A stretch of 60,625 bases of DNA, filler included, from Hausera hauseri (GCA_046269625.1; 12 parts of 12 records of this genome joined end to end with filler, not necessarily neighbours in it), one strand, 5' to 3'. Numbered from the whole stretch's first letter, positions 8,886 through 60,625 are shown. Numbers and translations: made by a program. Notes: generated from the letters alone by a model not told the origin.

Positions 8886-8894
8886 CAAAAAAAG

Positions 8895-9710: not shown

Positions 9711-9734
9711 TACCCATTAAAAGACACAACCACC

Positions 9735-23399: not shown

Positions 23400-24870
23400 T
23401 CAAGGCAGAAAATTGGGGCCTGCCTGTGTCCGACGCGCCGGTAGCGGAACACCTGGCCGTGCCCAATTGAATGGGCCGGAGGGCGACGATCGGTTCGGGC
23501 ACCACATCACCCCCCTTCGTGACAAAGATGAAACTATAAAGAATAAAAGATAGAGACAAAAAGTCGCAAAACGAAGGGTGTCAGCTGAGCTTAGTGTGAA
23601 TAAGACATTGGGTACCTTCGACTGATTTTTCCCTTCTATAATTGCTGAATGTGACTCTGTGTGTTGTGTTTGTGCGATGTTTTTGTTTGCAGAGATTGAG
23701 GTTGGGGAAAAAATTGTTAGATTTTGGTGTAGGTGTTGTGTCGTGCGAAAATCCGTAGGAATAAAGAGAAGAAGAGGATGAAGAAGGGAGAGTGATTGTT
23801 GAAGACGGATGTTTAAAGGCATTGAAAAGTACTAGAAGAAGGAGTGATGAAAGGTGTAGTGGCGGATAAAGGAAGAGAAGAAAAGGTTGGAGTATAGATT
23901 GGAGTTGTGCTGAGTGAAACAGTGGAAGAGGAAGATGATATAGAAGGAGTGGTAGGAATAGAAGTCGAAAGTGTAGAAAGTGATGGAGCAAGACTAGGCG
24001 CAGAAGTGGAAGGTGGAAATGGTGTAGCAATAGATATAGTGATAGCAGGGGGTGAAGGAGTAAGAAAAGAGGTTTACGTGTCGGTTGGTAAGGTGTCGTC
24101 GACAAAGAAAGTGGGCTTTAGGTTGGTAATGTGTACTGTGAGGTCTTTGCCGTCTTTACAAATAATGGCGTTGTGTGAGTGTAGCTGTATCAGTTTATAG
24201 GGCCCCAGGTACCGCGTCTGTAAACCACAGGGCGCTTGATTCTTCAGCCATACGAATTTCGCCGAATACAAATCTTCGGGTAAATATGCTTTGTCTTTGT
24301 AAAATATCCTGCAGAACGAATCTTTGCTGACCTCGACGAAGAAGTTTTGCGCCGCCCGTATCGCCTCATCCTTGGGAGTGTCGTCTAGGGCGGTTAGTTA
24401 GAATAATGATCGGGCAGGTGCTCCGAATAAAGCTTCAGTAGGTGAATATCCTGTAGAAGTGGACGGAGTGTTCCGCCAGCCGAGCAGAACGAACGGAAGA
24501 AGATTCGTCCAGCTAGTGTTGGACTCTACGAGAATTCTTAGTGACGTTTTCAGTGTTCGGTGGAAACGTTCTAGAAGGCCATTCGATTGGGAGTGATGAG
24601 GCGTAGTATGAATGTGGCGGATTCCCAATCGATTAACAAGGGATTTGAAGAGGTTGTATTCAAACTGTGGACCCTGGTCCGTGATGATGAAGCGAGGTGG
24701 TCCAAATCTGCTAATCCATGTACGAATGAAAACGTCAGCTATAGTGTCGGTGTTTGTGCTCTGCAGAGTGATGGCTTCTGGCCATCGCGAGGAACGGTCC
24801 ATCATGGTGAGGATGAATTGATGTCCGTTGTCTGGAGGAAGAGGGCCAACGATGTCGATATGCACGGATT
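23400..24870 (-). mobile_element. Ty3/Gypsy (CsRN1/Kabuki-like) 3' end: integrase, low-complexity tail, PPT and start of 3' LTR
   Basis: HIDIVGPLP..DRSSRWPEA..WISRFGPP..TDQGPQF..SNGLLERFHRTLK; GPY motif (YLGPYK); PPT GAAGGGGGGTGA followed by TGTGG starting at 23506. Confidence 0.9.
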
Positions 24871-24970
24871 NNNNNNNNNNNNNNNNNNNNNNNNNNNNNN
24901 NNNNNNNNNNNNNNTTAATTAATTAANNNNNNNNNNNNNNNNNNNNNNNNNNNNNNNNNNNNNNNNNNNN

Positions 24971-33197: not shown

Positions 33198-33996
33198 TGT
33201 CCGAATACNNNNNNNNNNNNNNNNNNNNNNNNNNNNNNNNNNNNNNNNNNNNTTAATTAATTAANNNNNNNNNNNNNNNNNNNNNNNNNNNNNNNNNNNN
33301 NNNNNNNNAAAGTAATGAAAATTTGTAAAAGTTCAAAATTCCTAAACGTAGTTGGGGAGATATGAACAAATACAAAATGTTGTTACATTTAAAATCTTGA
33401 AATGCGTTATTTTGGCTTTCTTGACAAATGTTTTAATTAATATTATTAATCAGCATTATATTTTGCACTTTTCTCATTATTTGTTATAAAAACCCAGATT
33501 TACAATAAAATTTGTTTCCTTGTTAGAATATTTCTGAAACCACGACCGCTCAGCCAAGGACTCTGAGGATCTTCTGTATGGAGAAGTTATTATAATAACC
33601 GTCATTTATAATCGATATTGAAACGAATTTGTATCGAAATAGAACGTCCCGCGCGCTTGATAGAATTTTCAAGTCAAAAGCTGACGATGAAATACAGTTG
33701 AGTATACTCGCTAATCATGCCAAATCGAGGATCGATAAATTGCTCAATGAATTTTAATGCGTCATGGTGAGCGGCATTTGTAAACTCTCGATTTTCTATT
33801 TAAATTGTGTACTTAAACAAAATAAATTCGAATTTTAATTTTTGAATTTTTCCAAACACGTGTTTGTCAAATGGTGAAACCGTAAATTGTTCCATTTGAC
33901 TTTGTAAGAAAACCATGCACTCATATTGCAATTTTCCATATATTATTATTCAGCATTGCGATTGGATTATTTACATGAAAAGCCCTGATTAGTAGC

Positions 33997-34206
33997 ACAG
34001 GATCATTACAAAGTCCTGCAAGAAAATTTTTGCGCCAGAGTTCGGGTTTAGTGTGATTGTTATGTGATGGTGTGCTTTCATAATTTTATATTGTTCATTA
34101 TCTATATGCAAGGCAATAATATTAATGCACACCAACACATAAGTATCTCACACTAAATCTGAACTTTGGTGCAAAAATTCTGATGCTGAACTTTTAATCA
34201 TCTTGT
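33997..34206. repeat. Fold-back/MITE-like inverted repeat
   Basis: Arm 33997-34075 is an imperfect reverse complement of arm 34127-34206, with a ~50-bp AT-rich spacer. Confidence 0.75.
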
Positions 34207-34419
34207 AAAGTCTCTTCCCTTAGTTTTTTGTTTCTATATTTTATAAATCCATCATTCGTCTGTCTACTTTGCATCGTAATAGAAGAGAAAAGGCGGAAAC
34301 TTTCTATTTTAAATCACATTTTTAATAAAGATGTTATTAGCACTAATAGAGTTATATCAAACCTATTGCACAAAATCCTTCTTTTCTTTTATAACAAGGA
34401 AACGAATTTTACTGTAAAT

Positions 34420-35280
34420 TTTTATTACAGGGGATAAATTGGAATCGCAGAACTATATCACAAAATGATAACGAACGATTGTAAATTAGATATGGAAATC
34501 ATGAGGACAAAATGAGCTCTTATCTACGCTAACCCTGAATTAGCATCACAAATAATTCCTGAGGGAAGGAATTTTCGGTCGAGTTACCGGTGAGAGAAGA
34601 GACGTATCAATCAATGTAGAAGAAAAACTGCATACAAGAACTTCCCGTTATTTATCGGAATACTCCGCGGTTAGCCATGCCGCTTGAAGAGTATTATTAG
34701 ATAATGTGACCGAGCCAACGATCCTTAAGGAACGTAAGGCAAGTTTAGGAAAACCCATGTTTAGACGTAGCGAAACGGATTGGGTAAGTTTGCCAAATGG
34801 AGGCATTACCGCCGCTCCTATTAAGTTAACAGGAACTAACTTCGTAAAAGGAATAACAGACGATAAATTCCAAGACACCTCATCAAAAGGTATTTATAGA
34901 CCAAAAGAAATTGAAGCCTTTAGACAATTTGCTTTTCCGCGACAACGGACACGAATTAAATCGAGTCATGGCCTCCGTAGTAGATGATACTCAATACCAA
35001 TCCAAATTTGGAATCCTTGCTCGGAGTAAACCATTACCATCGAGTAACCACGGAAATACTTGAAAATTTTGGGAAGATTTTTAATTTTTGTACAGGCTGC
35101 ATCTGGATTTCTAGCGATATACTTAATCCAACTAATTAAGGCAGTCATCCCAGCAGTAATAAATGGATATGAAATATTTACGTTGACTGGATTTTCATGT
35201 AAAATTTTGACCTCGATTATCACACCCTTCGGAAAGTTTTTAAAGGCATATGAAGAAAGCAGATGGAAATCGGATGTAGA
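34420..35280 (+). pseudogene. Chuvirus-like glycoprotein, C-terminal half with TM region (copy H)
   Basis: IAELYHKMITNDCKLDMEIMRTK..PMFRRSETDWVSL..KGIYRPKEIEAFRQF..GRFLIFVQAASGFLAIYLIQLIKAVIPAVINGY. Confidence 0.8.
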
Positions 35281-35904
35281 ACGTCATGTTGGCTATCATA
35301 ATCGTAAACGAAAAGGAAGACCGATGTTTTTGTACAAGCGGAAGCTCACCAAACCTAAAACACGAAATAATTCGGATGATGACGAGCCGAAGGGAGGAGA
35401 AGCCCTTTTAAGAACGGACAGACATAAGATGTATTTCATCTTAAAGGCACCATCGCCTGTTACCCCCTTCCGCTCCAGTCTATGAAGACTGTGATAAGAG
35501 ATTAATGAGTTTGTATCAAACAGAAATCTATAAGAGAACGATTAGTCTAGAAGACCCTTATGAAGGGATGAAACAATATGGAATCTTATGGAAATTGTGC
35601 TATCGACAGTCTATAGACGAACCTAGAATTTTGTACTCCAAGAGAACCTCTAGAGACTAGAGCACTTGTCTGGGGAAATCAAAGATTACAGACTGTCCGG
35701 AATGTAGAACCACACACTAATAACCGAGAACCACTAATTAGTACTCATGAGTTAGAAGAGTCCAGCCTCCAAAACAACGAATTATACCCAAATGGAGAAT
35801 TAAGACAATTATCGGAAAACTTGGTGTCCTCTTCGGAAATCAGGATAAAACGGTCATAAAATATCGACAATCAGACGCCCGAAAGCTGAATCGAATTGTT
35901 TCAG

Positions 35905-36260
35905 AACAGTAATAGAAGGAAGACCCTTCGCCAAAATCACTATTGAAGATTGGAAAGTTTATGCTCTAATCGACACAGGCTCCGAAATGTCTTACATCAA
36001 AAATGACTCAATTCCTCAAACGTTAAGAGGACAGTTGTATCCACCATCAAAAAAAGATCCTGTAAGCACAGGAGCTTTCGGTCAAATGTTGAAACCGATG
36101 TTTAAATGGAACCCCGAAATTCGAATAGTTGGACAGTTTTTCCGTCACGAATTTGCAATTTGTAGTTCTAGGCTGCGACCTATTGAAAAAACTACCAAAT
36201 ATAGCAATAGATTTGCAAACTGGAAAACTAAGAGATTAGGCCAAATAAAGGCGTAAAAAC
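35905..36260 (+). pseudogene. Retropepsin aspartic protease (copy H)
   Basis: IEGRPFAKITIEDWKVYALIDTGSEMSYIK. Confidence 0.9.
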
Positions 36261-36699
36261 ACCTAAAGTCAGGAAATTTGGAGAAGTGTGGATCCCAGTA
36301 GACGAAAACATTCCAGCAATAACAGAAGTAATAATCTACGTGCAAATTCAACAAGATGACCAACCAGTATATTTTGAACCAAAGGAAGCGTTGAATCCGA
36401 TCAGAATAGCAAATAATGCACGGACCCTGGTCAAGTTACACGCTTATACTACTTTAGGAAATACTTATGGAGTATCGTCTATAACTATTGAAGAAAACCC
36501 TATAAATATGCTGAATTTCCACCTTATGTTGAAACCAAGTTTTCACTTGAATCTTATTGTCCATTCTATGAATTATGCCGTTATAAATTAATTATTGCCA
36601 AAGACGATGATGATATTGGTAGAGCTAGAGCTCTAAAACTGACTATTCCACTTAAAAAGCCCGGTTCAAACGAAGAAATAGATTATGAAGGTCAGAAGA

Positions 36700-37320
36700 T
36701 GCCGAAATGGTATCCTCCACCCCATTCACTGAGACCCGAGATAACAAGGGGTTGAACGAATGCTTAAAGCAGATATAATTAGGCCCAGCTATAGACCTTG
36801 GTACTCGCTAATCCTTATGTTTAAAAAGAAAGGTACTACAAAACATTGCTTTTGTATTGATTACAGAGCGCTGAATAATCTTATGATGAAAGATTCTTTC
36901 CCATTACCATCAGTAAAAGAAGCTCTAGATAGGCTTTCAGGAGCAATATGGTTTACTACTCTGGATTTACAATCCGGATATTGGCAAGTGGAAATTGAGG
37001 ATAAAGACCGCTATAAAACAGCGTTTAAGACGCACGATGGCGTTTATGAATTTAATGTTATGCCGTTTGGTATTACTACCGGACCAGCTATTTTTACAAG
37101 GATGATGAATAAAATGTTAATGGGACAAGACCACGCTTTAGCATACTTAGACGATGTAATGATAACATTCACGACAGAAGGATATTTAAAAGATATCGAG
37201 CACACATTAATGCGATTGGAACAAGCAAGGCTAAAATTAAACCCAAAGATATGCAAATTGGCTCAAAACGCAGTATTGTACCTTGGCCATATAGTTGGAG
37301 AATGAGGGTCGAAACCAGAC
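36700..37320 (+). pseudogene. Ty3/Gypsy reverse transcriptase (copy H)
   Basis: FCIDYRALN, KDSFPLP, FTTLDLQSGYWQV, KTAF, MPFG, YLDD (37144-37155), YLGH. Confidence 0.97.
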
Positions 37321-37329
37321 AAGCCGTTG

Positions 37330-37940
37330 TTGAACAAGATGTCAGATTGCATGAAGCTGCAAAATTAGAAAGAGCTAAGACACTGGCTAAGTTTATGTGA
37401 ATATTACGCCACTTATGTGCCAGACAACTCGAAAATAAATGCACCTTTATATCGTCTGCTTAAGAAAGGAATTAAATGGAAATGGACCGATGTCGAACAG
37501 AAAGCTTTCGACGAAATTAAGAAAGTCTTAACAAGCGAACCAGTTTTACGATACCCAGACTTTAACTTGTCATTTATAATCAAGACAGATGTCAGTAAGG
37601 AAGGTATCGGATATGAATTAGCTCAACAACGAGATGAAGAATTGGAACATCCAATTGCATATGAAGGACTTTACTTGAAGAAAGCCGAGAAGAATTATTC
37701 TGTTACGGAATTAGAAACTTTAGCCGTTAAAGAAGCACTTCAACATTTTAACGTTTGTGTATCGGCAGAAAATCATAATTGTGTCGGATCATAAAGCTGT
37801 CACGACTTTACCGGGACGAGCAAACAATCCCACATGCAGACTTGACAGATGGATTGAAGAATTCTTTAGATATAATATTGAATTTCAGTATAAGCCTGGA
37901 GACAAACAACTAGATGCGGATGCACTATCGAGATTAAAAA
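37330..37940 (+). pseudogene. RT connection and RNase H (copy H)
   Basis: PVLRYPDF..IKTDVSKEGIG..NYSVTELETLAV..SDHKAV..YKPGDKQLDADALSR. Confidence 0.95.
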
Positions 37941-38189
37941 CTAAGACAAGTGCAATTACGGTAATGAAGAAAGCTCAGCTTGATGAATTAATAGATCGCC
38001 AACGCGCTTTAACGTTGGACAAAGCAATGAAAATCTCAACCGAACAGAAAAGGGATAAAGTCATCCAGCAGATTATAGAATTTTCTAAAAGGGACACAAT
38101 ACGGAAGGGACGACAATTAAAGAAGCACCTACAGAGAGACGGACACAGATATTGTGTCTTGAATGATAAAGGCCGCGAAGGCATTTTAT

Positions 38190-38990
38190 ATTATGAACGA
38201 AAAGGAAGAAAACTGATAGTCATTCCAAAAGGCTTACGAACCGAAGTTTTAATGGCAGAACACGATTCATATTTAGCAGGGCATGCCATAGAAGAACACT
38301 GGAAAGAATATTGAATAAATACTTTTGGCCCAGCATCTATATTGATGTAAAGAATTGGGTAAGTGTTTGTGAAGTATGCGTAACCAAACAGAAGACAAAA
38401 ACTACATAGCAGAATTAAAACCAATCAACGTACCAGACAGACCCATGCAAGCCACGTCAATGGATATCGTAGGACCGCTACCCACGACCCACAAAAATAA
38501 TAAATATATCTTGACTTGTATTGATCGACAAACTCATTTTGTCGAGTTAGTAGAGCTAACCGATCAAAAGGCAGAAGCTGTGGTAAGAATAATTTGTTGA
38601 TATGGGCCCCCAGATCAAATACTGACAGATCGAGGAAGAAATTTTACAAGTGAACTATTTGAAAAGATTTCTAAAATATTTGAAATTGAACAGTTAGCTA
38701 CTACCGCATACCACCCTCAATGTAATGGAATGGTTGAGTCAATGAATGCAACTGTTATACGCATATTATCAACAGTAGTAGCCAAGGACTAAAAAGATTG
38801 GGATGAATCTTTAGAAAGAATTCAATTTGCCATTAATCTCACACAACATCCGGCAACAGGATTTACACAATTCTTCATGATGTATGGACGAGAAGCTGTG
38901 TTACCCACAGACTTAGGAATGACGCCATACACGACAAACCCCGAAAATTTAGAGCAAAACTTCGCAGAAGTGTTACAGACGTGACTACAG
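38190..38990 (+). pseudogene. Integrase (HHCC and DDE core; copy H)
   Basis: HDSYLAGH..CEVC..SMDIVGPLP..YILTCID..LTDRGRNFTS..TAYHPQCNGMVE..YGRE. Confidence 0.95.
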
Positions 38991-39467
38991 AAATATTGGT
39001 GTGAGGATATAATTGAGAACAGAAATTCTAAATTTAAATTAGAAACATTTTTAAATTTAAATTAAAAATTTGATTTAAAAGTAATATTAAAAGTCTGATT
39101 TAAATTTGGGAAATTTGTTTCCAAATAAATATCTTGAATTATAATAAAAATTTTCAACAACTGTTGTTCCTTTTCAATGAGCAATTACAAACGATCAAAT
39201 TCTGATTTAGCGGTTAGACCAGTGGGCGGGGATTTTCCAACCCTACCCAAGCTGGGCGACGAGGTGGACGGCGTGGATGCGAACGCGGCCAACAGTCCTA
39301 ATGTGTATGAAATGGTTTATTAAAGTCGATACAGTACAAGGCAGAAAGTTAAAAAAGTTCTGTAATTNNNNNNNNNNNNNNNNNNNNNNNNNNNNNNNNN
39401 NNNNNNNNNNNTTAATTAATTAANNNNNNNNNNNNNNNNNNNNNNNNNNNNNNNNNNNNNNNNNNNN

Positions 39468-40075
39468 AAAGTACAGGCGCCATATTGAATATGGCACTTC
39501 TGGTTTTCGGTATATGTTTTCGTAATACTATGGAACATCATCTTTTGGTTCCTCATTTTTGTTTCATAGAAATCGACCACTACTATTCCTGATTCTCTTC
39601 CTTTTCCCGTACCGTACTCACCTCCTTTACGATATCCGGTATGCATATCCAGTTTCCCAATTGCTACTTTATATACTCGAATTATTTTTCCTTGCTGAGC
39701 TTCTAGCTCCGTTCCATCCCATCTCAATCTTCCGGTTTCTTTTGCTTGTTTACACTGTTATCGATCTAAATCCATGGGGATTAATGGAGTCGTCGGTTTT
39801 ACTATCGACGAGTGTCCGTGCATGTTTCCGCAGTGGAAAATACTCTGCAACCGTTGCAGCATGCACTCTGTTCCATCTATTGCAATTAATTCACGCTGCT
39901 GATATAGAAAATACTTTTATCTATAGTTACTAACTGGTGAGGTCGGGCATCTTTGCATAATTCCAAATCCACCAAGGAATATCTTTGTTCAATTTTAAAC
40001 TAATCGCAGTCATATACTGTAATTGCACCGAGCTGTCTTATTAACATCATAAGTGTTATTAATTTGATCATCCAG
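39468..40075 (-). pseudogene. Chuvirus-like glycoprotein N-terminus with signal-like segment (copy I)
   Basis: WMIKLITLMMLIRQLGAITVYDCD*FKIEQRYSLVDLELCKDARPH..FHCG..GHSS..GKLDMHTGY..GGEYGTG..VVVDFYET. Confidence 0.8.
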
Positions 40076-43000
40076 TTTGATTCGTTATCTCGCGCTGCGT
40101 TAGCTGATGTTAGATTTCTTACCATATTTTCAATTCTAGAGGTCGGTCTGTTTCCATCTTCGTCGTCAAATAACTTGGACCAATTTATCTCTGGGTATTC
40201 TCTTAGCAGCTTTTCTGATCAATCCAATGGTCCTATTGAATTTATTTTCCTTTAGAGGGTTTTTTTGATTGCCAAGTACAATATTACTTTCCTTAATTCT
40301 TCGTTAATATTCTCTACCATAATTTTCTCGATTAAAACTTCGTCAGATAAGTTGTTTTCGTTCATTTTGAACCGAAATGTTCTCATTATCCTTGCAGCAT
40401 CATATATTGCTTTTTCCTGTTTATCTAGCATCTCGTTTCTCGGTCCTGAATAGTTCACTATTTTGATAATGTATTTCAGTAGCTCGTTTAACACTTCGCT
40501 ATCGGAGTTAATCGCGGGCATGGATAATTGCCTTAGTTCTCTTATCAGAGCTGCATTTTGGTCAATATCATCTCTTATTTTTCTCGGCTTTCCAACTGAT
40601 TGTTTCTGTTTCTGCGCAGTTCGTGTTGCTTCACCAATCGGTACTAAATTTTTATCGTATTGTTCCTTATCTTTCTCACTCTGGAGGTAGTCAAAATACA
40701 TGACGGGTCTCTGACTTCCATAATGTGTCCTACGCAATGTTCATCTCTCGCTTTCCTTATAGCCTTAACGTTTGTTTTTTCGTCGGTAATTATAGCCACT
40801 ATTCGATTTGTTTCTTCTGGAATAATTCCGACATCTATTAGTAGCTCAGGTTCGTCCAGGATTCGACCTCGGAAATACAATCGGTTTTACTTCTCTAACC
40901 GTTGTTATCGTTTTACATTCAATTTCTCTCTCTTCCATCCAATCGGCTGATATTTTTACCTTGATCGTCGTTTCGGTTTTTGTCTTTAAGAAATCAGTGT
41001 ATTTCTTTATTAATAGCCGGGGCACGGAGTTGTAGACGACATTTTCACTTGATAATTTAGTCAATGTAGGAATCAACTGCCTCAATATGGTTTCGGTCAT
41101 GCTAACGTTAATGTATTCTATTAATTCTCTCTCGGCTAGTGCGGGATTTAATAGCATTCCCGCATTAAATCGCTGGTCGATTGGAAAGGTATCCATTGGT
41201 TGAAGTTGGATGTGCGTCTTGTGATTTTGGTTGTACAAATTTTCTAAATAAGCATCCCATCCTGAGTCATTTGTATCATCCGGAAGTCCATAATCTAACA
41301 ACACTGTAGGCGCGCTTGGCGCATTTTCACGGATTTCGTTCAACCTCGGCTGTACTTCCTTCATCAAGTTAGTGCGAAATTCTACTCCGTTTCCACACGC
41401 AAGTTGTATCGCTTTTTAGTGTTGGTTCTAATTCCTCTGCAGGAAATAACCCTTTTCTTTCATAATTCGTTAATTCGGTCGTCACATCCGTTAACCACCT
41501 TTGTACGAATTCTCTTTTATTCGTTAACTCTGATTGCGTGATGTTATATTTATTCGTATAAGCCTCAAATTCTTTGCCTAATTCATCTAGCTTCGTAGCT
41601 CTTTGCTTTGTGCGAATTCGCAATTTTTTTATTTCTTTGACCTGAGTTGTCAATTGTCGTGTCTTGTCGTCATGTATTTCTGCCATTGTCGATAGTAGTG
41701 ATATTATTTCGTGCATTTCTTTTAGAGTTCTCGAATCGGGATCTATTTCTTCGATCAGTCTTTTTACGAATTTAGCTTCGTCGACTGTTAGGCGATGACC
41801 TTTGATTACATGTATTAATTCAGCGTGACAATTCTGGTCGGTATCTGATGCTCACTCAAAAGGACGATGTAGATATTTAAGTACTTCTTCTAATGCAATC
41901 CGATGATTTAGGCAAATATCCAACGTCGATAGATCACATATTGACATTTCATCTATGGGTCTCGTTACCAGATGTAGTATTCCTTCTATGCGAACGCCTT
42001 TTAGTTTCGTTGATAAGGAGGAGATCCTTTCCTGTTTCGCCTATAATTCAATTTCTTCTATCATGGTGTACAATTCTTCCGTGAGTTTGATTTCCTGATT
42101 TTCGTTCATAATTCTTAGTCTCAATAATGCATTAAATTCAACTCGAAGGTTTGCCTCTATTTTGTAAACATCTAGATTACGCAGTATCTCTTTTAGCTTT
42201 TGTTTTAGCTGTTGTTCATATTCTGAATACTTCCTTAGACGATATTTCGCAAAATCAACTAATCTGTCTAATAGTTAAATCCATTCTTTGAGTTTGTTAT
42301 CTATCATTGGTTTCTCATTTATTACATTTTTTAGTCGTTCGTAGGTGTCGTGTAATTTATCATCTGGACCTTTAATATAGCCCGTTACTTTCTTGACGTA
42401 GTTAATTTCCTTCTTGTATTTGACGAATTCTAAAATACATGTTTTCGTGATATTTTGTACTTCTTGATTTTCTACATACTTTATCTTATTCCTACATCTG
42501 TAGATTTTGGAGCGCCTTTTATCCTGTGAGGCTATGCGAATTCCTATATCCCCATATTCCTGTGGTGCGTTGAACGCAATCTAACACATTTCCATTATGA
42601 GAGGAATGTCTACAGGTTCTATGCCTAGTATTGAAAATTCGTTTTCATCCAATTTGTATATTGGTTTATTTTTGAGGTGATAGATTACTGCGATCTCTAT
42701 TTCTACCATTAACCTTTCTAAATTCCGTTTTGTTCGCTTCTGCTTCAGATCCGTCTCTAGAATCCTTAATATTCCTTAGGCAGTCGCCACTTTATTCTTA
42801 ATTTCTAACTCCTGATTATATCATGTGTCGGTGAAGTTGATTCCGTATTTTATCCATAGATCCTATTTTTTCTTCCATTCATCAATCGACTTCTCCATAA
42901 TTCCGTACGTTTGCTCTGGTTCTTTCTTTTTGTTAACATCTTCCTCAAGGTATTGTTTGAATTCTTTGTACATTCTTTCGGCGAATTGCTGTTCTTTTCC

Positions 43001-43300
43001 TGACACATCTACTTGAGTTTTTATACGCCTTAATTCGTCCAGATTGTGACTTATCGTCTCCGTATCTGTTGGTGCGATCCTAATTTTCCAGATTTTTCTG
43101 ATCCTCCACACCTTTCCGTCTGACCTTTTAAGTCGTTCCGTGCCATCAGTCTTACCTTCGCTATCGGGTAATGGACATATCTCATTTATCTCACTGTTCG
43201 CGTCTCCTACTGTTACGCTTGTAGGAGACGTTCTTCTGCCAAGTTTTCAGATTCAGCGTCCAAGTCTACACTGGGTGATACTACTGCTATTTCGACTTCG
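40076..43300 (-). pseudogene. Unknown helical/coiled-coil domain X (copy I)
   Basis: ORF pieces 42863-43111, 41369-41716, 40846-41367, 40644-40880 and 40252-40737 each match copy L (e.g. QRFNAGMLLNP / QRFNVGMLLDP; EELRKVILYLAIK / EELRKVLLYLAIK). Confidence 0.8.
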
Positions 43301-43360
43301 TTCACCTCTTTTGTCTGCGCGAGCTTCTCAGGCACATTTTTCTTGCGAACCATGTTATTA

Positions 43361-43861
43361 TTACCATGTTATTATTATCATTACATCCAAATCTGACGGA
43401 ACTGATTTTTCTGCGGCTCTACGTTCAGTGTCATCCTTTTCCTTGGCCATATTCAAAATTCGCAGTGTACTAATGTAGCTATTTCCTAACTTTTTCAAAG
43501 CAAACGCAAACTGGGTGACTGATTCGCCCTTCTGTTGCGTCCTATTTTGATATACCATCAACTTTTGCTGTGGAGTTACGGTTGGCAGTAATTTCCTATT
43601 TAATTCTCCTACTAATGACGACCAATCTCTCTTTTCTTCGTCCGTCAACTCGGCGTAGGCATCTGCGGCCAAATTCGTCAAATAAAGCGATAATCGTCTA
43701 ATCATCTGACGAGGTTTTAACCCTATGCCTTCGGCGTGAAGTTTATATGTTTTCAAAAATTCATTTAATCCTTCCGGATCACCGTCGTATGCCGGTAAAT
43801 TTAATGATTTGTATGTGAAAATGTCCAGTTTCTGTCTGGCTGTAGTATTATCAGCTGCCAT
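43361..43861 (-). pseudogene. gag: Retrotransposon Gag capsid domain (copy I)
   Basis: LPAYDGDP..LSLYLTNLAADAY..DWSSLVGEL..RTQQKGESVTQFAFALKKL (MHR-like QxxxExVxxF). Confidence 0.88.
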
Positions 43862-44193
43862 TTTATTTGTATTTGCGTCTGTTCTGTTTTCTACTTTACG
43901 TCGGTCGGAACTTTAAAATTTACTTCTTGATCTTGGTCTAATAAACCTGTTAAATTTTCTCGTGACTCGGATAATGTGCGCTTTTCGTCTGAATTTGTTC
44001 ATACTATACTACTGGTTCATCTTATGTTTAAATTTTCCTTACCGTTTAGGTTTAAATGTTCTGATCTACTATGCTTCTCAATATTTGAGTTTCNNNNNNN
44101 NNNNNNNNNNNNNNNNNNNNNNNNNNNNNNNNNNNNNTTAATTAATTAANNNNNNNNNNNNNNNNNNNNNNNNNNNNNNNNNNNNNNNNNNNN

Positions 44194-48689: not shown

Positions 48690-48783
48690 CACATTCAATA
48701 GGATCATATATTATATCTGCCCAGGATGTGAGGCTGTATGTGATGGAGAATAGATATACTTTTATGATGATCACAAACATCAT

Positions 48784-51700
48784 TTGACTGACTTTACATC
48801 AAAGTCAAAGAAGGTCATATTTAATGAGCAGAATCCTGCTTTGGCAGAACAGCCAGTTGTACAGCTCGCTTTAGCAGCAAAGCCCGATAAAGGACTAAAA
48901 CGCATATCAGAAGTAGCAGCAGATGCTCCATCAAAAAGCCAAAAACAGCGATCAGTCGATGTAGCTGCACTGAAGAGCAAAATGTGGCGATATTTCATAG
49001 CAGCAGTGGGGCAGATATCGCTCCATGAATTCCTGGAATAATCAAAGAAGGAGGCAGCAGGAATTCTCCTGGACAACTTGTTGGAGCTAAAGGCCCTTAA
49101 GGTGAACTTCAAATTGGAAGTCACCTTCACCAATGTCAAAGGAGAGCTGTCTAGTAGAGCCTTCAAGATAAAGAAAAGGCCACTATTGAAATCCTTTAAC
49201 ATTAAGGATTTCATTACAGAGGATTATGTAAGGCTCATCGGCGAAGCTGAAGAAAGCCAGGACAAGAAGAGCGGCTGGACTTTAGCAATAATAAAGGGGT
49301 TACTTGTGCATGTGCTCAAGTATTCTCTCATAAGAGGCAGCTCCTACATACCGCTTCCTGAATGGATAGTTAAAAATGGCATGCATCAATGTCCATAATG
49401 AGGACAGCATGTGCTTCATGTATTCTATTTTGTCAAAACTGGTCCAGAATCAACATAGTGCTTCCCGAATTTGGATATATGACAAAGTGCAGCACACATA
49501 CGACTTCAGGTGTATTTGATTTCCGCCAAGCCTAGATGAAGTCGTGAAATTTGAAAGCGTGAACATCTCCATGAACGTCTTCGGATTGGAGGAGGACAAA
49601 TTTTATCCCTTACATGTGTGCAAGGAGGAATTGCAGGATCATAGGGATCTGCTCCTGCTAGACGATGGAGAAACGAGGCATTTCATCTGGATCAAGAATT
49701 TTGAGCGCCTTGTAGGATCCCAAATATCCAAGCATAAATCAAAGCTGGAAATATGCAAAAGATGCTTTACCCATTTCAGTGGAGACACAGCCGCAGAAAA
49801 GCTGGAGGAGCACATAACCTACTGAAATACAAACTATTGCATCCGAGCAGAATTCCCCAAGGAGGATTACCTGGAATTCAAGGAGTTCGAGAAAATGCAG
49901 AAGGTGCCGATTATAATATATTGTGACTTTAAGGTCATCCTCAGTCCAGTTCACAGCTGCAGCTCTAATCCACAGCAAAGCAGTACTACAGCATACCAGT
50001 ACTATGAGTTATCATCCTACTGCATGTATGCCAAAGGACTGGACAAAGAACCCTACTTATACAGGGGTGTAAATGCAGCAGCACATTTTATGCAGCGTCT
50101 GGAACAGTATTCCCACAAACTTGAAGACATGTTGCAGCAGCATAAGGGCTACATGGTGATGTCGCAGCAAGAAAAATGTGAATAACACAAAGAATCAACA
50201 TACTACTTATGCAGAAAGCCATTCACATGGGGCAATCACAAAGTCAGAGATCATTGCCATTTTACAGGCATATACCGAGGCGTAGCGTACAACAATTGCA
50301 ACTTACGCTGCAAGACATATACATATGTTCCTGTGGTATTCCGTAATCTTAGTGGATACGATTCCCACTTCATTGTTCAAGAAATGGGTAATATTGAGGG
50401 GAACATTGATGTGATTCCAAATAGTGAGGAGAAGTACATCACATTCACGAAGCATGTCGGCCGCATCAGATTTCGCTTCATTGATAGCTTCCGCTTCATG
50501 AGCTTGTCACTGAACAGCCTCGTGAAGAACATTCCAGGTGATGAGCTCAAGGAGACGAAGAGATTCTTCCCTATGACTATATAACGTCATGGAAAGCACT
50601 AAATGAAGATGCTGACTATGAGCACGCCCAAAGAGTATTGCATACCTTCCAGTGTAGGACAATAGGGGATTACAGTGATATCTATTTCCTCACAGATGTG
50701 CTGTTGCTTACTGATGTTTTCGAAAGCTTCCAGGATCTGACCATTAAGAACCACAAGTTAGATCCAGCTCATTTCTTTACAGGTCCAGGAATGAGTTGGG
50801 CAGCTATGCTGCGCTATACCGGCATAAGGCTCCAGATCTTGAAAGATTTCAGTGTGGTCCTCATGATTGAGAGAGGCATCAGGGGTGGAATATGCCAGGC
50901 CATTCACAGTTACAGTGAGGTCAGCAACAAATACATGGCAGATTATGATCCATCTAAGGAATCCTCATATATATCATACCTGAATGCCAACAATCTGTAT
51001 GGATAGGCAATGAACAACCCATTGACGTATGATAACTTTCAATGGGTTGGGCAGCCGCAAGTTCTGGATATTGAAGGTATAGATCCAATGGAGATATGGG
51101 CTGCATACTGGAGGTGGACGTGGAATAGCCACATGGCATCCACACAAGGCATGAGCAGCTGCCTTTTCTCCCGGAGAACAATAGGCCACCAAATGGTAAG
51201 CATAAGAAGCTGCTCTGTCACCTCGAAAACAGGGAGACGTATGTAGCCCACTTCATAAATCTCCAACAAACCATCCAAAATGGACCCCTAATCATCAGGA
51301 TTCATCGGACCCTGCAGTTCAACTAGTCCGAATGGCTGAATCCATACATAGACCTCAATACCCAGTTGATGGCCAATGCCAAGAACGAGTTTGGAAAGGT
51401 CCAATTAAAGCTGTATAACAACTCGACTTTGGCAAAGCTATGGAGAACATCCGGAACCGGATAAACATCGAGCTGGTATGTGACTGGAAGAGGGCAAAGA
51501 AACTCATCGCTATGCCCAACTTCCACAGTACATAATCTACACGGAGAACCTGGTGAGCATCCACTGCTCAATACATCACTTGATTTCAACAAGCCTATAT
51601 ATGTGGGTATGTCTATATTGGATTTATCCAAGACCTTGATGTATGTATTTCACTAGAAGTTATGGTCCCCACATTCAAGGAGCTGCAGCTAATGTACATG

Positions 51701-52160
51701 GACACGGACAGTTTCATATACTACATCCAAACAGGTGATGTCTTTGAAAAGTTTACAAAATTGGCGCAGTATATGGATACCTCAGACTATCCGAAGGATC
51801 ATCCAAATTACTCAACCGTCAACAAGAAGGTCCTCGGGAAGTTTAAAGACAGAGTGAATGGGAAGATCATCACCCGTTTCGTTGAGTTGAGATCAAAAAT
51901 GTACGCCATCGATGTAAGTGGTCATGTAAAGAAGTGAGCTAAGGAAGTTCAAAGGGCCACATTAGCTAAAGACATAGGCTTTGTAAATTTTGAGAGAGTG
52001 TTGCGGAAACAAACTCACATCGTCAGCGAGATGAAGAGGATCCAGTCCCGGGAACATCAGATATCTACTATGAAAGAAAAGTCTCGATTGGTTCCATGAC
52101 AAAAGGCACATTTTTGAAGACGGAATCCACACACTACCTCATAGACATGTGGCATTGTAA
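48784..52160 (+). pseudogene. Maverick protein-primed family B DNA polymerase, near full length, decayed
   Basis: RGSSYIPLP; ExoI IIYCDF; RDHCHFTGIYRG..NNCNL insert; ExoII NLSGYDSHF; FIDSFRFM; ExoIII TDVLLLTDVFE; ERGIRGG; motif A YLNANNLYG; motif B KLYNNS; motif C YMDTDS; LGKFKD; LRSKMYA. Confidence 0.96.
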
Positions 52161-52538: not shown

Positions 52539-53324
52539 CGTTTTGTAGCGATCTTCCTCCTCTATCTCTACTTGCCAATATCCAGATTGTAAATCGAGCG
52601 TGGTAAACCATTTAGCTCCCGAAAGTGTGTCTAAAGCTTCCTTTACTCATGGTAACGGAAAAGAGTCCTTCATCATGAGTGTATTTAATGCTCAATAGTC
52701 GATACAAAATCGGTGCTTATTGGTGCCTTTTTTCTTAACCATGGGTATAGGAGAATACCAAGATCTGTAGCTTGGCCTTATTATGTCGGCCTTTAACATT
52801 GGTTCAACCTCTTTGGTTATCTCTGGCCTTAATGAGTGTGGCAGAGGATACCATTTCGGCATCTTTTGATCCTCTAGATCTATTTTATCGTTGAAACCGG
52901 GCTTTTTCTTAAGTGGAATCGTTAGTCTTAAAGTTTTGGCTCGGCCAATATTTTCTTCATCTCTCGCGATGATCGAGCTATAGCGACAAAGTAATTCGTA
53001 GAATCGACAGTATGATTCTGGTGAAAATGTAATCTCCACATGGGGTGGAAATTCGAAGCCTTTATACGGTTTCTCCTCGATCGCAATTGATGGCACTCTA
53101 TACGTGTGTCCTAGAGTGGTATTGGCGTACAGTTTGGTTGGAGTGAGCGCATTCCTCGCTATTCTGATTGGCACGCGGCCTGTTAATACTATTGTCAAAA
53201 CATTGCTGAGCACGAGGTTTGGATCGAGCAATTCCTTTGGTTCAAAATATATTGGCTGATCGTCATCCTGATGTATCTGATCATGTATTAGAATTTCTGT
53301 TCTAGATGGTATGGTTTCATCCAC
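52539..53324 (-). pseudogene. PR-RT linker and reverse transcriptase N-terminus (copy L)
   Basis: PKWYPLP..MLKADIIRPS..SPIPMVKKK..RFCIDY..KDSFPLP..FTTLDLQSGYWQV. Confidence 0.95.
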
Positions 53325-53399
53325 TGGAATCCATAATTCTCCAAATTTTCTGTCTTTAGTGGTTTTAACTCGTTTATTGGGCCAAGTTCTATCAACTTG

Positions 53400-53735
53400 C
53401 CTGCACTGAAATCGATTGCTATATTAAGTAGTTGTCTCAATAAGTCACACCCTAACACTACATCATCCGTTAGTTGCTCCATTACTGAAAATTCATGATG
53501 GAAGAATTGTCCCATTATGTAAATTTCTGGTTTCCAACGGAATTTACTTTCCGATGATTGTCCGAAAGCTCCAATGTTTCCTGGATCAGTCGTGGGAGGT
53601 GGATATAATTGTTCCCGTAGGAATTGTGGTATCGAATCACATTTTATCAGTGATATTTCAGACCCTGTATCTATTAGTGCGAAAACTTCCTAACATTCCA
53701 ATTGCATTTTTGCTAAGGGCCTGCCTTCAATTACT
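53400..53735 (-). pseudogene. Retropepsin aspartic protease (copy L)
   Basis: IEGRPLAKMQLEC*EVFALIDTGSEISLIK..DVVLGCDLL. Confidence 0.92.
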
Positions 53736-54399
53736 GTTCCGTAATAACTTAGTGCTGTTTTTGAGTGTCGTATCGTAGACACTTTGTAGCCGTTTATGGT
53801 AACTTCAGTGGTTCCACCTGGCTGCTCGATTACTTGTCTTAACTGTCCAATTGTGTATAGTTCGTTATTCGTGCCATTTGCATTTTCTACTCCTTGGCTT
53901 CTAACTGGCGGCTGAACATCTTGGTTTCGGAGATTGCGTGTCTCACAACTTCTGGTAAATATTGACTGCATTTGGTTTGGTCTAGGTACTCTAGGTGAAT
54001 ATATTATACCGTGATAATCGATCGCGAGGCGACGATGTGGGGCAGACGTTCTTTCCGTTTCGTGGATCTTACGCAATATCCCATAGCGTTTTGCTTCTTC
54101 GTAAGGATCCTCTAAGTTGAACGGTTTCCGATAAACGTCTGCCTGATACGAGCTCATTGATTGTTTCTCTCAATCTTCATATATATGTGCCGTTGGCTGC
54201 AGTATTGGTAATGGCAGTTTCATAACAGAGTAGTTTTTGTGCCTACTTGGCCTAGAGATTACATGTCCTTCCCTAGGCTGGTCATCGTCAAAAATTATTT
54301 CTTCTTGTCTTGCTATCTATGAATTTTTGCCTGTAATCGAATATGCATCTTTTACGTTTTCGATTATGGTAGCCAACATGTCGTTCCACAAGGTTTTCC

Positions 54400-56245
54400 A
54401 TTTACTCTCTTCATAAGCTTTTAAAAATTTGTCGAAGGGCGTAATAATAGCTGTTAAAATCTTGCACGAAAATCCTGTCATGGTGAATATCTCATATCCA
54501 TTTATGATTCCTTGAATTATGGCTTTTATTAGTTGAACTAAAAAGTGTATCGCTAAAAAACCTGACGCGGCCTGCCCGAATATCAGAAATCTTCCCCAAA
54601 TTTTGTATAAAATTTCTCTAGTTACCTTCCTGTAATAGCCAACACCGAGTAATGACTCCCATTTCGCCTGGTAGCGCGAGTCCCCTAGTATCGTATGCAT
54701 CGCTCTGTTTAATTCATATGGACGCTGGCGGGAAAAGCCAGAAATTGTCTAAACGCCTCTACTTCTTTTGGTCGGTAAATACCCTTAGTGGCTGTATCTT
54801 GAAACTTATCATCGGTTATTCCTTTTATCAGGTTTGTACACGTCAGTTTGGTAGGTGGTACGATAATACCGCCGTTCGGTAAACTTACCCAGTCGGTTTC
54901 GCTACGTCTAAACATCGGCTCTCCTAAGCTGGTTTTACAGTCTCTTAAAATTGTCGGTTGAGTGGTATTTGTCAACAACACTCTGGTAATTGGTGTTACT
55001 AATCTCGGTACGTCTTTATATATATCACTGGAAGCTCTTGTATACACCTTTTCGCTTCACATTAATCGGTACGTCTTTCCTCTCGCACTCATACGTCAAT
55101 AAAACCCCTCCTGTTACTCGTCCAAAAACACCTTCCTTCATCGGAATTATTGGCGATGCCAACTCACGATTGGCGTATATTAGAGCTAGTTTAGTTCTCA
55201 TGATTTCCAAATCTAACTTGCAGTCGTTTGTTATCATCTTGTGGCATAACTCGGCTATTTCGGCTTGTCCTTTATAGTAAAAATAGTCGCCTCTGTTCTT
55301 CAAATAGTCTTCAATCCGGATGTCTTGAGTCTCGAGTTTGAACGTTCTGGTGTTTATTTTTGTTTCGGCTGCGAAAAATGCTTCATAATTGGTGGCATTC
55401 ATTACAACGTCGCATCTGCTGAGCATAGCCTTCTTTACAAATTTTAATCCATGAGTATCAGAAATCAGTATCGTAAGTGTGGACTGCTCGGCTATATCAT
55501 CTCGTGTTTTAGAGTTAGTTTCCGTGCTACTTATATATCGTTTCCCTGTCGTCTCATTGAATTTAAGTTCTTTGATTCTGATAAAATTGCAATCAGTCTT
55601 GGCTGGGGTTCCAAATTACCACGGAACTTAGAAGCGGGCATGTGTCATCCTAAACGTGACACTTGTGGTTCTTGGTGTAGAGTTTAGTAACGCTATGAAA
55701 CATCACTTTCTGTATACGTATTTCAGTTTCGTAGAAATCCACTATTACGATGTTCGACTCTAATCCCTTTCCAGTACCGTATTCCGCACCGTAACAATGT
55801 CCGGTATGCATATCCAGTCTTCCTGCTGCTAATTCATAAACTCGAATTATTTTCCCTTGCTGCATTTCCATTTCCATACCGTCCCATTTTATTCCCCCCG
55901 TCTCTCTAGCTTGCTTACAATGCTGTCGCTCTAAATTCATCGGAATCATTAGGGTTGTTGGCTTGATTATTGATGAGTGTCCATGTACCAGTCCACAGTG
56001 GAAAATGTTGCGAGATCGCCGAAACATACATTCTACTCCGTCCAGGTAACTAGTTCGCGTTGTTGATTTAACACAACTTTTCTCTTTTGTTTCTAATCTG
56101 TGGGGCCTCGCATCTTCGCACATGTCCAAGTCCATTAACGAATATTTTTGGCCAAGTCTAAATTTGTCGCAATTATATACTGTGACTGCACCCATTTGTT
56201 TGATTAACGTCATCAAGGTCAAAAGTTTGATTAGCCAGTTTGATT
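54400..56245 (-). pseudogene. env: Chuvirus-like (class III-type) envelope glycoprotein, complete but disrupted (copy L)
   Basis: Signal-like WLIKLLTLMTLIKQMGA, then VYNC..YSLMDLDMC..FHCGLVHGHSSI..AGRLDMHTGHCYGAEY..NDCKLD..GGVLLTYEC..TPITRVL..GIYRPKEVEAFRQFLAFP..TM. The cysteine and motif order matches chuvirus G as I recall it. Confidence 0.82.
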
Positions 56246-59200
56246 AATTTCCTCTCCTATTTCCAGTTACGTTTCATAGCACATCTTCAAATCTATTGCC
56301 ATTTGAGAAGAATTTACTTTGATATTCTTCTTCTTTCCTTAATAACTTCGACCAGTTCACCTCCCGGGGTAGTTTTCTGGCAGCCTTCCTTGCCAAGCTA
56401 GTAGCCTTGTTGAATTCAATTTCCCGGTTTGGGTTAGTTTTGATTGCCAGATATAGTAATACTTTTCTTAATTCTTCTATGGTATTTTCCGTCATAATTC
56501 TATCAATCACCATCTCATCGCTTAAGATACTTCTGGATAATTTACACCGTAAGTTTCTCATGGCTTTGGCTGCATTAAATATAATCCTCTCTTTCTCATC
56601 TAATATATCACCGTCGAGATTAGAGTGGTTTACTGTTTGTATCAAATCCTTCATCAATTCGTTCAGTTCCTCATTATCCGCACTGAAAGTTGGTATAGAC
56701 ATCTGCCTCAACTCCTTAATTAGGTCTCCATTATAGTCGATTTCTTTTCGTATATTCCGTGATCTGCCGACAGGGCGCTTCTTTTTGTTACCGCAGGTAT
56801 ACTGCCGTCTTTTGGTACTAAATTTCTATCGTATTGTTCATTATCTTCGTCTGTCTGCAGGTACTCGAAATATACTGTTGCATCTCGTACTCCTATTATT
56901 CGTCCTACCTGCTTTTCTGCTTTAGCCTTCCTTATAGCCTCTTCCTTTGTTTGGTTTCTAGCGGTAGTTACCACTAATCGGTTTACCTCACCTGGGATAA
57001 TTCCGACTTCTGTTAATAATTCTGACTCATCTAGGATCATTCGTCTGAAATAAAGTCTATAACTCAGCTCATGGGCGTATCCATTAGCCTTTATCTACAG
57101 CAATACATCCTTTACAAAGGAGCAGGTAGTGAACTGTTGCTCCTTTTCCACCATCCAGTCTGATACTATCTTTACTGGGATTATTTCCTCCGCCTTCGTC
57201 TTTAAGATTTTAGCATATTCCTTAAGTAAGAGCTTAGGTACCGTATTAGAAATTGTGCCTTCGCTAGCTAATTTAGTTAAAGTGGGAACTAGACGTCTTA
57301 GTTGATTTTCAGTGAGGTTCATTTTAATTAATTGAATTAATTCTTTCTCGGTTTGTACCGGATCCAGGAGCATTCCTACGTTGAACCTTTGTTTTGGAGA
57401 ATATACCTCCGTTTTATCCGATCGTATTGGAGTTTTTGGATTCTCGGTAATTATTGAGTCAAAATATGCATCCAAATCTGGTTCGTTTTTATCGTCTGGC
57501 AATTGATAATCCCTTGACAGTGCATCGGTTGGCCTGTCCACACTTGCGGTCCATGTAGTTTTCCTGAGTTCTTGTAGTTTTTGTTGCATTTGGACCATTT
57601 TCGTCGTTCGGAAACATCGTCCATTAGCGGACGTTTGGTGGAGCAGTGTTAACAACAAACATAATTCTTCGGGTGAAATGAACCCCTTTTCTTGATATTT
57701 CTTTAGTTCCGACGTGACATTTCTTTGCCATCTTTGAACAAATTGTGACTTGTCAGCCTTTTCTGTTTCTGTAAGGGCGTATTTGTTTTTATAGGCTTTG
57801 CGTTCTCTAGCTAATTCATCTAATTTTATCGCTCTCTGTTTGGTATTAATGCAAGTTTCTTCGACTTGCTGTATTTATACCAACAATTGTCTTAGTTTCT
57901 CGTCACTAATTTCTGCCATTTCCGCCATCAGTAGTGCTAATTCGTACGTCTTGTTAATACTGTTTGAATCTGGATCTTTCGCATCTAATAACTTTTTTAC
58001 AAATTTGATCTCTTCAAAATTGAGGTGGCGGTCGTTCTTTATTTTAATCAGTTCGGTGTGAAGTCTGCTCCGTTCCATCTCTCCATTTTTGGGGACGATG
58101 TAAGAAGTGAACCCCTCTTCAACGACTGATCGGTCTTCGGGACAACAGTCTAAGGTTTCAAGATCTCGGATCGAAATTTCTTCGATAGGTTTGGCTGCAA
58201 GTATCGTATTCCTTTTAAGCGTACATCTCTCAGTCGCGGATAGAAATCACAAGTCGCATTTCGTTTCCGTACGAAATTTGTTTCTACGATCATCATATAT
58301 TTATCATCTAATATCATCATTTCTTGTTTCTTCTCCATAAAGTTCAATTGGCATAATGCCTCAAATTGAGTTCGGATGTCAATTTCTGCTCTTATTGTAT
58401 CTAGATTTCGAGCGTCTTCTTCTAACAGTTTCTTTACCGTAGGTTCGCTCTCCGGAAATTCGCTCTTTCGATTGTTAATCAGTTTACTCAACCTGGTTAT
58501 TACTTTGGTCCATTCGTTCAGTTGATTAGCGATTTCTGGCTTTGCCAATATTGCTTTATCTAACGTTTTGTAAGCGTCTTTTAGCTTATCATCCGGACCT
58601 TTAATGAAATGTATGATCCGGTAGACATAATCAAACTTGTCCTTGTACTTATCAAACTCGAGGATGCAAGCCATAATTATTTTGTGTGTTTCCTCGTTAT
58701 TGGTTTACATAATTCTATACTTTAGACCATATATCTGAGACCGTTTTTCGGTTTCGATCCTAATACGATTTTCCAAACTTGTATATTGCTTTGATGCCGT
58801 CGAAGCGACCTTTATCATTTCCATCAAGGGTGGAGTATCTATGGAATCTATGTCCAACATCCCTAGGTCATTTGCATCTCGTTCATTCATGACACGCTCC
58901 AAATTACGTACGGCTCTTTTCAATTTCGGGTTGGCTTCTAATGTAATTAATAGCGACTAAGCTTAATTGATTTTAGCTTCAATGTCTCGAGTAATTTTAT
59001 CCCACGTCTCTGGGAATTTTGTCTTGCTTTTGCTGCATCGTTCTAGTTCGTGTTTCCACTGAGTTAGTGTTTCCTTTGGCACTTCTTCGGGCTGATCTAA
59101 GTCTATAGCTTCGCTTAGTTTCCTTTCATTATATAATTTCATCTTTTTGTATAATCTTTCTATAAACTGCTGCTCCTTAGCGGAAATATCCACTTGTTCA

Positions 59201-60040
59201 CTCATTACCTTGAGTTTTTCTACGTTCTGTTGAACTGCCTCTGGGTTTAGACAGTCGGTTCTCATCCTTTTTTATTCATTGGCATTTTTCCACGAGCGTC
59301 TGATTTTCCACTTTTTAGGATCGAGTTTCTCTTCTTGTTCTATTTCCTCTTCACTAGTAGGTAAGGGACATATGTCGTTTATCTCATTTATAGATTTAGC
59401 TAGCTCATCCATTTCGCTTGGCGTAACTAAATTAATTTCCGGAACGTTCAAGACGCATTTGGTGTCGCTTTCTAGCGCGATTTTGCTTTCTCTCTTTGTG
59501 CTTTACTTCTCCTGAGTCATAGGGGATTTCGAACGATCCTTGCGTTTTCGTCTCAATGATGGGCTACGGCCTCTATTCTTGGTAATTTTAAGTATAAGTG
59601 GTTCCAGAAGTTCTTCTTTTTCGTCGGCCTCAGCCTCCTTGGTTACTTTTTTATAGTATACTCGGGTTCTACATCTAAATCTACTTCATCCGGGGTCTCA
59701 GGTTTTCCTGTTTCGTCCGACTGCTTGCTTGTCAAAGGAATGTTCTTTTTCCGTGTCATATCAGTAAGGCTTGGTGGAGCGATGGAGTGTTCATATTCCG
59801 TTTCAGGTTCACGCAAGTCATGGTAAACTTCTAATAATCGTAATTTGTGTTCGTACTCGTTTTTAGCCACTAAAACTTTGGGGTCCTTAGTATCGGGCTG
59901 GGCCTTTAAGAAGCATCGTAAATCATGTATCTCGATGATCATACCCGTGTCTCTACGGACACCGTAGATTGCTTCTAAATATTTGTTTTTAATTACACTA
60001 ATTTTACTAGGTTCGACAAACGAAACATTTTGCGGGTTTG
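56246..60040 (-). pseudogene. Unknown helical/coiled-coil domain X, ~1,250 codons (copy L)
   Basis: Chain of co-oriented K/E/L-rich ORF pieces from 59942 down to 56274, homologous to copy I. Confidence 0.8.
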
Positions 60041-60041
60041 G

Positions 60042-60430
60042 ACAGGATCGCGCTATGTTAAATTCGTGTCCACATGTATAACAAATTAGATTACCGTTTT
60101 TTCCGATTCTCTGCCGGCCATCTTCATTTTGTGGGGATTTCGATCTACTCGGATTTCTATTGTAGCCTTGCTACGATGGGGCTTGTTTACAGTCCACATA
60201 CTGGCGGTTATCGTAATTCCGGCTATTATTCTGACGATTAAAATTTTTGGAGCCCTCTAGGCGCCTATCTGTATGATAGTTTGATTTACTAGAGGAACTA
60301 TTACGACTATTATCGAAATTCTAATTACTGTATCGATCGTTTTTGCTATCATAATTCTTGTTTCGATCCCCATAATTCCTGTTAAATCGTCTATCATGAC
60401 TTTATAGATATTTTACGACAGATTGTTTTG
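60042..60430 (-). pseudogene. gag: Gag C-terminus: R/N/S-rich region and zinc knuckle (copy L)
   Basis: CYTCGHEFNIARSC at 60042-60083 (CX2CX4HX4C spacing with H replaced by N), preceded by an RNYDR-type low-complexity stretch. Confidence 0.8.
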
Positions 60431-60625
60431 GGTCGTCTGGATATCGGAAGACAAAAACAGCGACTAAATAAGTATCGAGATGCTCTTGTGAATATGGCTA
60501 AGGCCATGAGTAATGCAGCAAAGAAACGAGCTCTGAAAAATTACTTTCCCGTGGAAAAAATAAAATGGAAAAGAGGGAAAAAGAAAATCGAAAACCAACA
60601 ACAATATTATGCATCGCCAGAAATT

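Follow-up and report, generated by a model that had tools for sequence, protein, structure and literature searches.

The window, a stretch of 60,625 nucleotides composed of 12 short contigs with N spacers between them, holds three decayed copies of one repeated Ty3/gypsy-type retroelement family in which a viral fusion glycoprotein (Env) lies between gag and pol. Judging from the alignment of these copies and from intact relatives, the ancestor probably encoded a single Gag-X-Env-Pol polyprotein, some 3,500 aa long or longer, X being the long region between the Gag zinc knuckle and Env. The family is a divergent addition to the known Burro-like kind of element, and the layout itself has already been published.

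Three decayed copies of one element

The copies, termed L, H and I, are pseudogenes, all three dead, and the whole element is found in no single one of them; copy L is without the capsid domain, which copy I retains. Their features, including the protease (PR), reverse transcriptase (RT), RNase H (RH) and integrase (IN) of Pol, are as follows.

52539-60625, minus strand: copy L, decayed retroelement, no single full element
33309-39367, plus strand: copy H, decayed retroelement, no single full element
34321..39000, plus strand: element part of copy H, comprising the C-terminal half of Env, tail, spacer, PR, RT, RH and IN (Pfam, tblastn)
39468-44093, minus strand: copy I, decayed retroelement, no single full element
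39468..43912, minus strand: element part of copy I, comprising a capsid-like domain, X and the N-terminal part of Env (tblastn, blastn)
43439-43897, minus strand: capsid-like domain, copy I (tblastn, P0032 residues 9-160, E = 1.4e-13)
60090..60430, minus strand: Arg/Asn/Ser-rich nucleocapsid-like part of Gag, copy L (tblastn with P0032, translation)
60042..60083, minus strand: degenerate Gag zinc knuckle, copy L (translation; end of the P0032 match)
56250..60041, minus strand: region X, copy L, about 1,280 codons, mostly Glu/Lys/Leu-rich (alignment to I)
56966..57355, minus strand: helical and ubiquitin/SUMO-like module inside X (profile of relatives, hhalign)
56310..56750, minus strand: all-helical domain directly before Env, at the position of the Bcl-2-like domain of Burro (alignment to I, models)
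54420..56243, minus strand: Env, class III fusion glycoprotein (HSV gB-type, chuvirus/mononegavirus-like), broken by frame changes (PF24664)
about 56175-56243, minus strand: predicted internal signal peptide of Env (hydropathy)
54503-54559, minus strand: predicted transmembrane helix of Env, single (hydropathy)
53750..54419, minus strand: cytoplasmic tail of Env and spacer, copy L (translation, alignment to H)
53390..53720, minus strand: aspartic protease with DTG motif at 53671, copy L (Pfam RVP, E = 1.2e-4; tblastn)
53050..53380, minus strand: PR-RT linker, copy L, at the position of the dUTPase-like domain of Burro (aligns with the same segment of relatives)
52539..52900, minus strand: N-terminal part of RT, copy L, cut by the contig end (alignment to H; tblastn)

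Copies L and H are 71% identical over 2,572 aligned bases, and L and I are 66% identical in the best blastn block, over 1,405 bases, or about 62% in a looser alignment. In one public run, which is possibly not independent of the source of the window and in which the depth of pieces on L is not a copy number, 15,450 contig pieces align to L, cover all 30 of its bins and are mostly less than 95% identical to it, so the family is both repeated and diverse. Pfam and tblastn confirm the order given in the original prediction, namely Gag knuckle, X, glycoprotein, spacer, PR and RT, and copy H does extend it through RH and IN, with Pfam matches to RVT_1, RNase H and the integrase core (E = 6.5e-12).

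No direct repeat of at least 40 bases was found in H plus I, in L, or in the loci L001 and L002 of two intact relatives, and no LTR pair, PBS or flanks were found in copies L, H and I, these contigs being too short or too truncated to contain both ends. The terminal 200 bases of L (60430-60625) look unrelated to gag and, in the public run, belong to a bin of far greater depth; they are probably another repeat that truncates the element.

Gag

The capsid domain and the CCHC knuckle region of Gag are both present in the family but on different copies, I and L respectively, and the knuckle region of copy I has apparently been deleted. The zinc knuckle originally claimed for L gains from a tblastn match between residues 279-439 of P0032, an intact relative, and L 60398-60039 (E = 9.6e-6), but it is degenerate. 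Pfam called neither this knuckle, for which no zf-CCHC match was returned, nor the capsid-like domain of I.

Region X and its domains

Region X of copy L carries three frame changes. In the in-frame blocks, X of L and X of I are 35-58% identical at the amino acid level, with pS of 0.66-0.90 and pN of 0.26-0.37. Nothing significant was found in Pfam with X of L. A profile built from nine segments of seven intact relatives matches L at 57355-56966 with iE = 5.4e-7 and I with iE = 3.8e-5, and hhalign gives this match a probability of 89.7%, as against less than 1% for control blocks; a shorter profile of the module scored only 0.16 and 0.0013. The corresponding segments of the relatives match the Pfam ubiquitin and Rad60-SLD families (P0034, E = 4.4e-5 and 0.0015), and it is indirectly, by way of these Pfam-matching domains, that the segments in L and I are called ubiquitin-like. 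On this profile evidence, X holds a ubiquitin-like module common to the intact relatives. The description of X as an unknown domain therefore no longer applies to the module, but it still fits most of X, which has no match in the intact relatives. When blocks of X were searched with phmmer against the proteins collected here, the only match, a weak one, was at the same module. The block at 58153-58704 has no relative among JGI metagenome contigs, two blocks of X gave only sub-0.9 leads in the ESM Atlas, and a crude coiled-coil score was negative in two blocks. The scanned pieces of L, which end short of the region 3' of IN, gave no match to Smc-like, MATH, BIR or ankyrin domains.

The helical domain directly before Env is 46-47% identical between L and I, and its models (pLDDT 48 and 52) have seven helices. 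With the second model, for which segments of the relatives were included in the alignment, five Bcl-2-family chains appear among 50 rows at Z of 4.8-5.5, no higher than the unrelated rows that top the same listing. Other fold searches of the domain gave no significant match, and neither did HMM and hhalign tests of the L domain for Bcl-2. Relatives have weak Pfam Bcl-2 matches at the same position (P0004, E = 0.00096; P0002, 0.055; P0005, 0.2). It is possible that the predicted domain is Bcl-2-like.

Env, tail and spacer

Four pieces of L, from 56243 to 54320, match PF24664 (Monjiviricetes_fusion, profile length 653) in profile order, at profile positions 8-181 (E = 5.5e-12), 260-390 (2.6e-6), 410-496 (0.0043) and 522-601 (9.9e-15), and the C-terminal part of the same glycoprotein is matched by Pfam in copy H. 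Between copies, pS and pN of Env are 0.72 and 0.19 in one comparison and 0.83 and 0.29 in another. A profile of Env matched no solved structure below E = 0.19. A word-seeded protein search with the N-terminal part of Env returned nothing, although a full HMMER search did find relatives.

In all 14 relatives examined, Env is preceded by a hydrophobic stretch (15-residue hydropathy 1.5-2.9) whose end lies immediately upstream of a conserved A/G-Y/F-D-C motif. The stretch is present in both L and I and is weaker in L, in which it is only weakly hydrophobic (1.33). The transmembrane segment of Env is found in 13 of these 14 relatives, the remaining one being cut short.

At the join of tail and spacer, copy H has a PSAP motif (35466-35490, plus strand) and copy L a similar Pro-rich motif (54175-54200, minus strand); the relative P0007 also has PSAP at this join. 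We take these motifs to resemble a budding late domain.

Pol

The order PR-RT-RH-IN in copy H is that of Ty3/gypsy elements (Metaviridae), and the best RT matches of the family are Ty3/gypsy-type polyproteins. The RT sequences of L and H are 84% identical at the amino acid level in the last block, with pS of 0.87 and pN of 0.07. No Pfam match was found for the PR-RT linker of L. Contigs A (2886-4076, minus strand) and E (24074-24922, minus strand) of the window contain pieces of RNase H and integrase genes from further gypsy-type elements that are more distant.

Intact relatives

The relatives are polyproteins from public metagenome assemblies, taken as gene predictions, two of which were checked on DNA. 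A full HMMER search with the X-Env junction returned 25 matches, and among the 13 that were scanned PF24664 is present in every one, protease in six, RT and IN on the same chain in three, and a knuckle before Env in two; a cluster member 4,844 aa long likewise combines Env with RT and IN. A search with the PR-RT linker and the start of RT returned 37 matches, four of which have Env as well as RT, three of them with the knuckle too. These four chains are the best matches covering at least 87% of the query. The intact chains with knuckle, Env and RT are P0032 (3,865 aa), P0033 (3,700 aa) and P0034 (4,057 aa). On DNA, L001, the locus of P0033, reads as 3,703 codons in a single frame without a stop, and L002 likewise as at least 3,426 codons, Env through IN included.

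The intact relatives are collinear with L, H and I, in the order capsid-like domain, knuckles, module, Env, PR, linker, RT, RH and IN, and are distant from the family, being 28-37% identical in Env (compared with L) and 41-45% identical in RT-RH. The nine best RT-RH matches form one well-supported clade that includes seven of the eight env-carrying chains. Copy H falls outside the env-carrying clade in both the RT-RH and the IN trees, although joining it to the clade is not rejected (p-AU of 0.53 for RT-RH and 0.17 for IN, in trees that left out 11 long, short or near-duplicate rows). In an incomplete mixture-model tree, H is among the long branches.

Some relatives have additional genes or segments. 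A match to an RNase T-like exonuclease is found in a separate downstream ORF in both L001 (12085-13473, E = 0.0011) and L002 (10617-12107, E = 1.4e-5), and L001 has a further ORF of 222 codons without a match; the region matching the exonuclease ORF is missing from the window. Two more hydrophobic segments follow the integrase in P0006, P0009, P0027, P0032, P0033 and P0034, as in a second membrane protein, and several relatives have two to seven protease-like repeats.

Frame changes and the single polyprotein

The junction peptides quoted in the original prediction are present in our translations, and in I or H sense codons do stand opposite the four junction stops that it named in L. Its picture of L as broken by these stops only was incomplete, since about nine frame changes had been omitted, near 59645, 58250, 56820, 55610, 55057, 54735, 54392, 54294 and 53375. 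Within a few bases of at least four of these nine, length differences are seen in other copies (best 12 of 24 rows). The statement that the tail continues in frame into the spacer likewise holds for L but not for H, which shifts frame there (about 35457 in H, 54207 in L).

Comparison of copies that are 62-71% alike reveals purifying selection in all three of X, env and pol, a pattern that out-of-frame pairings do not have. At the break near L 59645, which 535 pieces of the public run cross, all eight of the longest listed pieces are gapped relative to L, so this break is not the state of the family. On the same grounds we reject programmed -1 frameshifting on the A-rich stretch that precedes the stop at 59643-59645. 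Because X, env and pol are under selection, the break after the knuckle is unshared and intact relatives exist as single chains, an ancestral polyprotein in one frame is likely; the landmarks sum to about 3,500 aa, in agreement with the proposed chain of well over 3,000 aa in which env precedes pol. That proposal is tempered by a stop in X common to L and I and by the frame change in H, and the distance of the relatives also counts against it.

The stop in X (L 58957-58959; about 42790 in I) would, if real, leave the order of domains unchanged while splitting Gag-X1 from X2-Env-Pol, with readthrough or re-initiation setting the ratio of Gag to Env-Pol. Two copies only some 62% alike have a stop at the aligned place and each keeps a Met about 20 codons beyond it. 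Moreover, a single polyprotein needs some route to an excess of Gag over Pol, as follows from general knowledge of retroelements. We nevertheless regard a genuine stop as unlikely, because the two stops are different codons, another stop lies two codons upstream in L, coincidence by chance is roughly estimated at 0.06-0.26, and the intact relatives are free of stops from Gag to Env. A frameshift in the Env tail, with Gag-X-Env as one frame and Pol as a second, is how copy H now reads, its Env frame ending at a stop (35483-35485) and its spacer continuing in another frame; the available text of PMC13524379, moreover, writes of GAG-ENV-POL 'ORFs' without stating that they are fused. This arrangement we consider quite improbable for the ancestor, given that L keeps one frame through the join, that H has many other private lesions, and that Env, RT and IN lie on one chain in nine relatives (P0006, P0009, P0020, P0027, P0031-P0034 and L002).

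That an ordinary gag-pol retrotransposon received the glycoprotein as a nested insertion, whether of a viral fossil or of another element, or that the arrangement is an assembly chimera, could be suspected from the short contigs and repeat-rich source, and in arthropods chuvirus-like glycoprotein fossils are often found among LTR fragments, according to the part of PMC10084718 used here. However, Env has the identical position in three diverged copies with homology spanning both joins, it is under purifying selection, contig pieces of the public run span the X/Env join, and the order is common to distant relatives. These sequence comparisons largely refute an insertion or chimera, which would now be very surprising.

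Proposed topology and processing

The stretch before Env and the transmembrane segment of Env fit, in terms of sequence, an internal signal peptide followed by one stop-transfer helix, an arrangement that would keep Gag-X as well as Pol cytosolic. Translation of Gag-X would start in the cytosol, the hydrophobic stretch would act as the internal signal peptide, host signal peptidase would free the N-terminus of Env, and the ectodomain would enter the ER lumen until the single transmembrane helix stopped transfer and returned the tail, spacer and Pol to the cytosol. Gag-X and Pol, both cytosolic, would each stay tied to the membrane until cut by the protease of the element itself, and Pol would be carried to budding particles by the Env tail instead of by fusion to Gag. 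A single polyprotein needs a means of making more Gag than Pol, and splicing and the aligned stop in X are candidates for it. The ubiquitin-like and possible Bcl-2-like domains may act on the ubiquitin and cell-death pathways of the host, a role proposed for the cargo domains of Burro in the portion of PMC6431247 considered here.

Other contigs of the window

Contigs B (7269-10046, plus strand) and K (48780-51937, plus strand) have frames that we take to resemble Polinton/adintovirus genes, presumably for a capsid, a cysteine protease and a PC4-like protein, together with pieces of a protein-primed DNA polymerase. In contig J (44194-48207, plus strand), a repeated ectodomain-like unit is followed along broken frames by a transmembrane segment and, after it, by ankyrin repeats (E = 2e-12); tblastn gave no link between this contig and the C-termini of the relatives at E = 0.01. 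Contig C (12909-13337, plus strand) has a collagen-like frame with no Pfam or PDB match, which resembles, as we read it, a collagen XXIV/XXVII N-terminal domain of the vertebrate type. If that reading is true, the source may mix two organisms.

Comparison with known elements

The layout with env upstream of pol, which the original prediction could match to no described family, was in fact published in 2019 for Burro/GYPSM1 of planarians, in which env lies in frame between gag and pol (Arkhipova and Yushenova, PMC6431247, in the part of that paper used here). The family is laid out like Burro, and is set beside it by this published description rather than by sequence. Burro/GYPSM1 are giant gypsy-like LTR elements; common to them and the family are many copies, a CCHC knuckle in Gag, an extended cargo region that includes a ubiquitin/SUMO-like domain upstream of Env, a helical domain at the Bcl-2 position (its Bcl-2 identity being only possible in the family), a mononegavirus-like Env between gag and pol (here PF24664 between X and PR), and PR, a linker at the dUTPase-like position, RT, RH and IN. 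Burro/GYPSM1 polyproteins are longer, 4,873-5,140 aa against the 3,500 aa or more estimated here, and Burro/GYPSM1 elements exceed 30 kb and feature Smc-like, MATH, BIR and ankyrin domains, the last three of which were not found in the parts present here. Also different are the unmatched majority of X and the decay of every copy in the window. As a bolder and rather doubtful suggestion, the family may be a deeply branching sister to the Burro-type elements, possibly of a non-planarian host, with a genuine X stop whose readthrough sets the ratio of Gag to Env-Pol and with the other 900 or so residues of X forming a selected cargo domain.

Elements with GAG-ENV-POL order and a gB-type env are reported from several clades in Nematoda, Bryozoa and Platyhelminthes by Chary and Hayashi (PMC13524379, which cites Sacco 2022). 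These HSV/gB-type errantiviruses share with the family a Ty3/gypsy pol and a gB-type env upstream of pol, and by eye only, domain I-II of the L Env resembles the Schmidtea rows of supplement 2. The text of that paper considered here states neither a single frame nor the cargo domains. A chuvirus-type glycoprotein has also been captured by the mosquito LTR element Anakin, which is a BEL/Pao element, in contrast to the Ty3/gypsy-type best RT matches here (PMC7642597, PMC10084718 and PMC13524379, each as far as drawn on here); the same part of PMC10084718 describes no clear gypsy capture of chuvirus-like glycoproteins in arthropods.

Also comparable are the intact metagenome polyproteins (P0032, P0033/L001, P0034 and L002), which share the one collinear chain, the Env with an internal signal and the ubiquitin-like module. 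They are only 28-37% identical in Env and 43-45% in RT-RH, and several of them have extra protease copies, ankyrin or C2H2 domains, or a second membrane protein downstream of IN, while L001 and L002 have the exonuclease ORF, none of these features being visible in the copies here. For the processing of a giant membrane-spanning polyprotein and the balance of Gag and Pol, the active planarian elements are better suited than these dead fragments. The family extends a rare, already published architecture by one divergent lineage and shows that ubiquitin-like cargo and an internal-signal Env persist between elements whose Env sequences are only about 30% alike.
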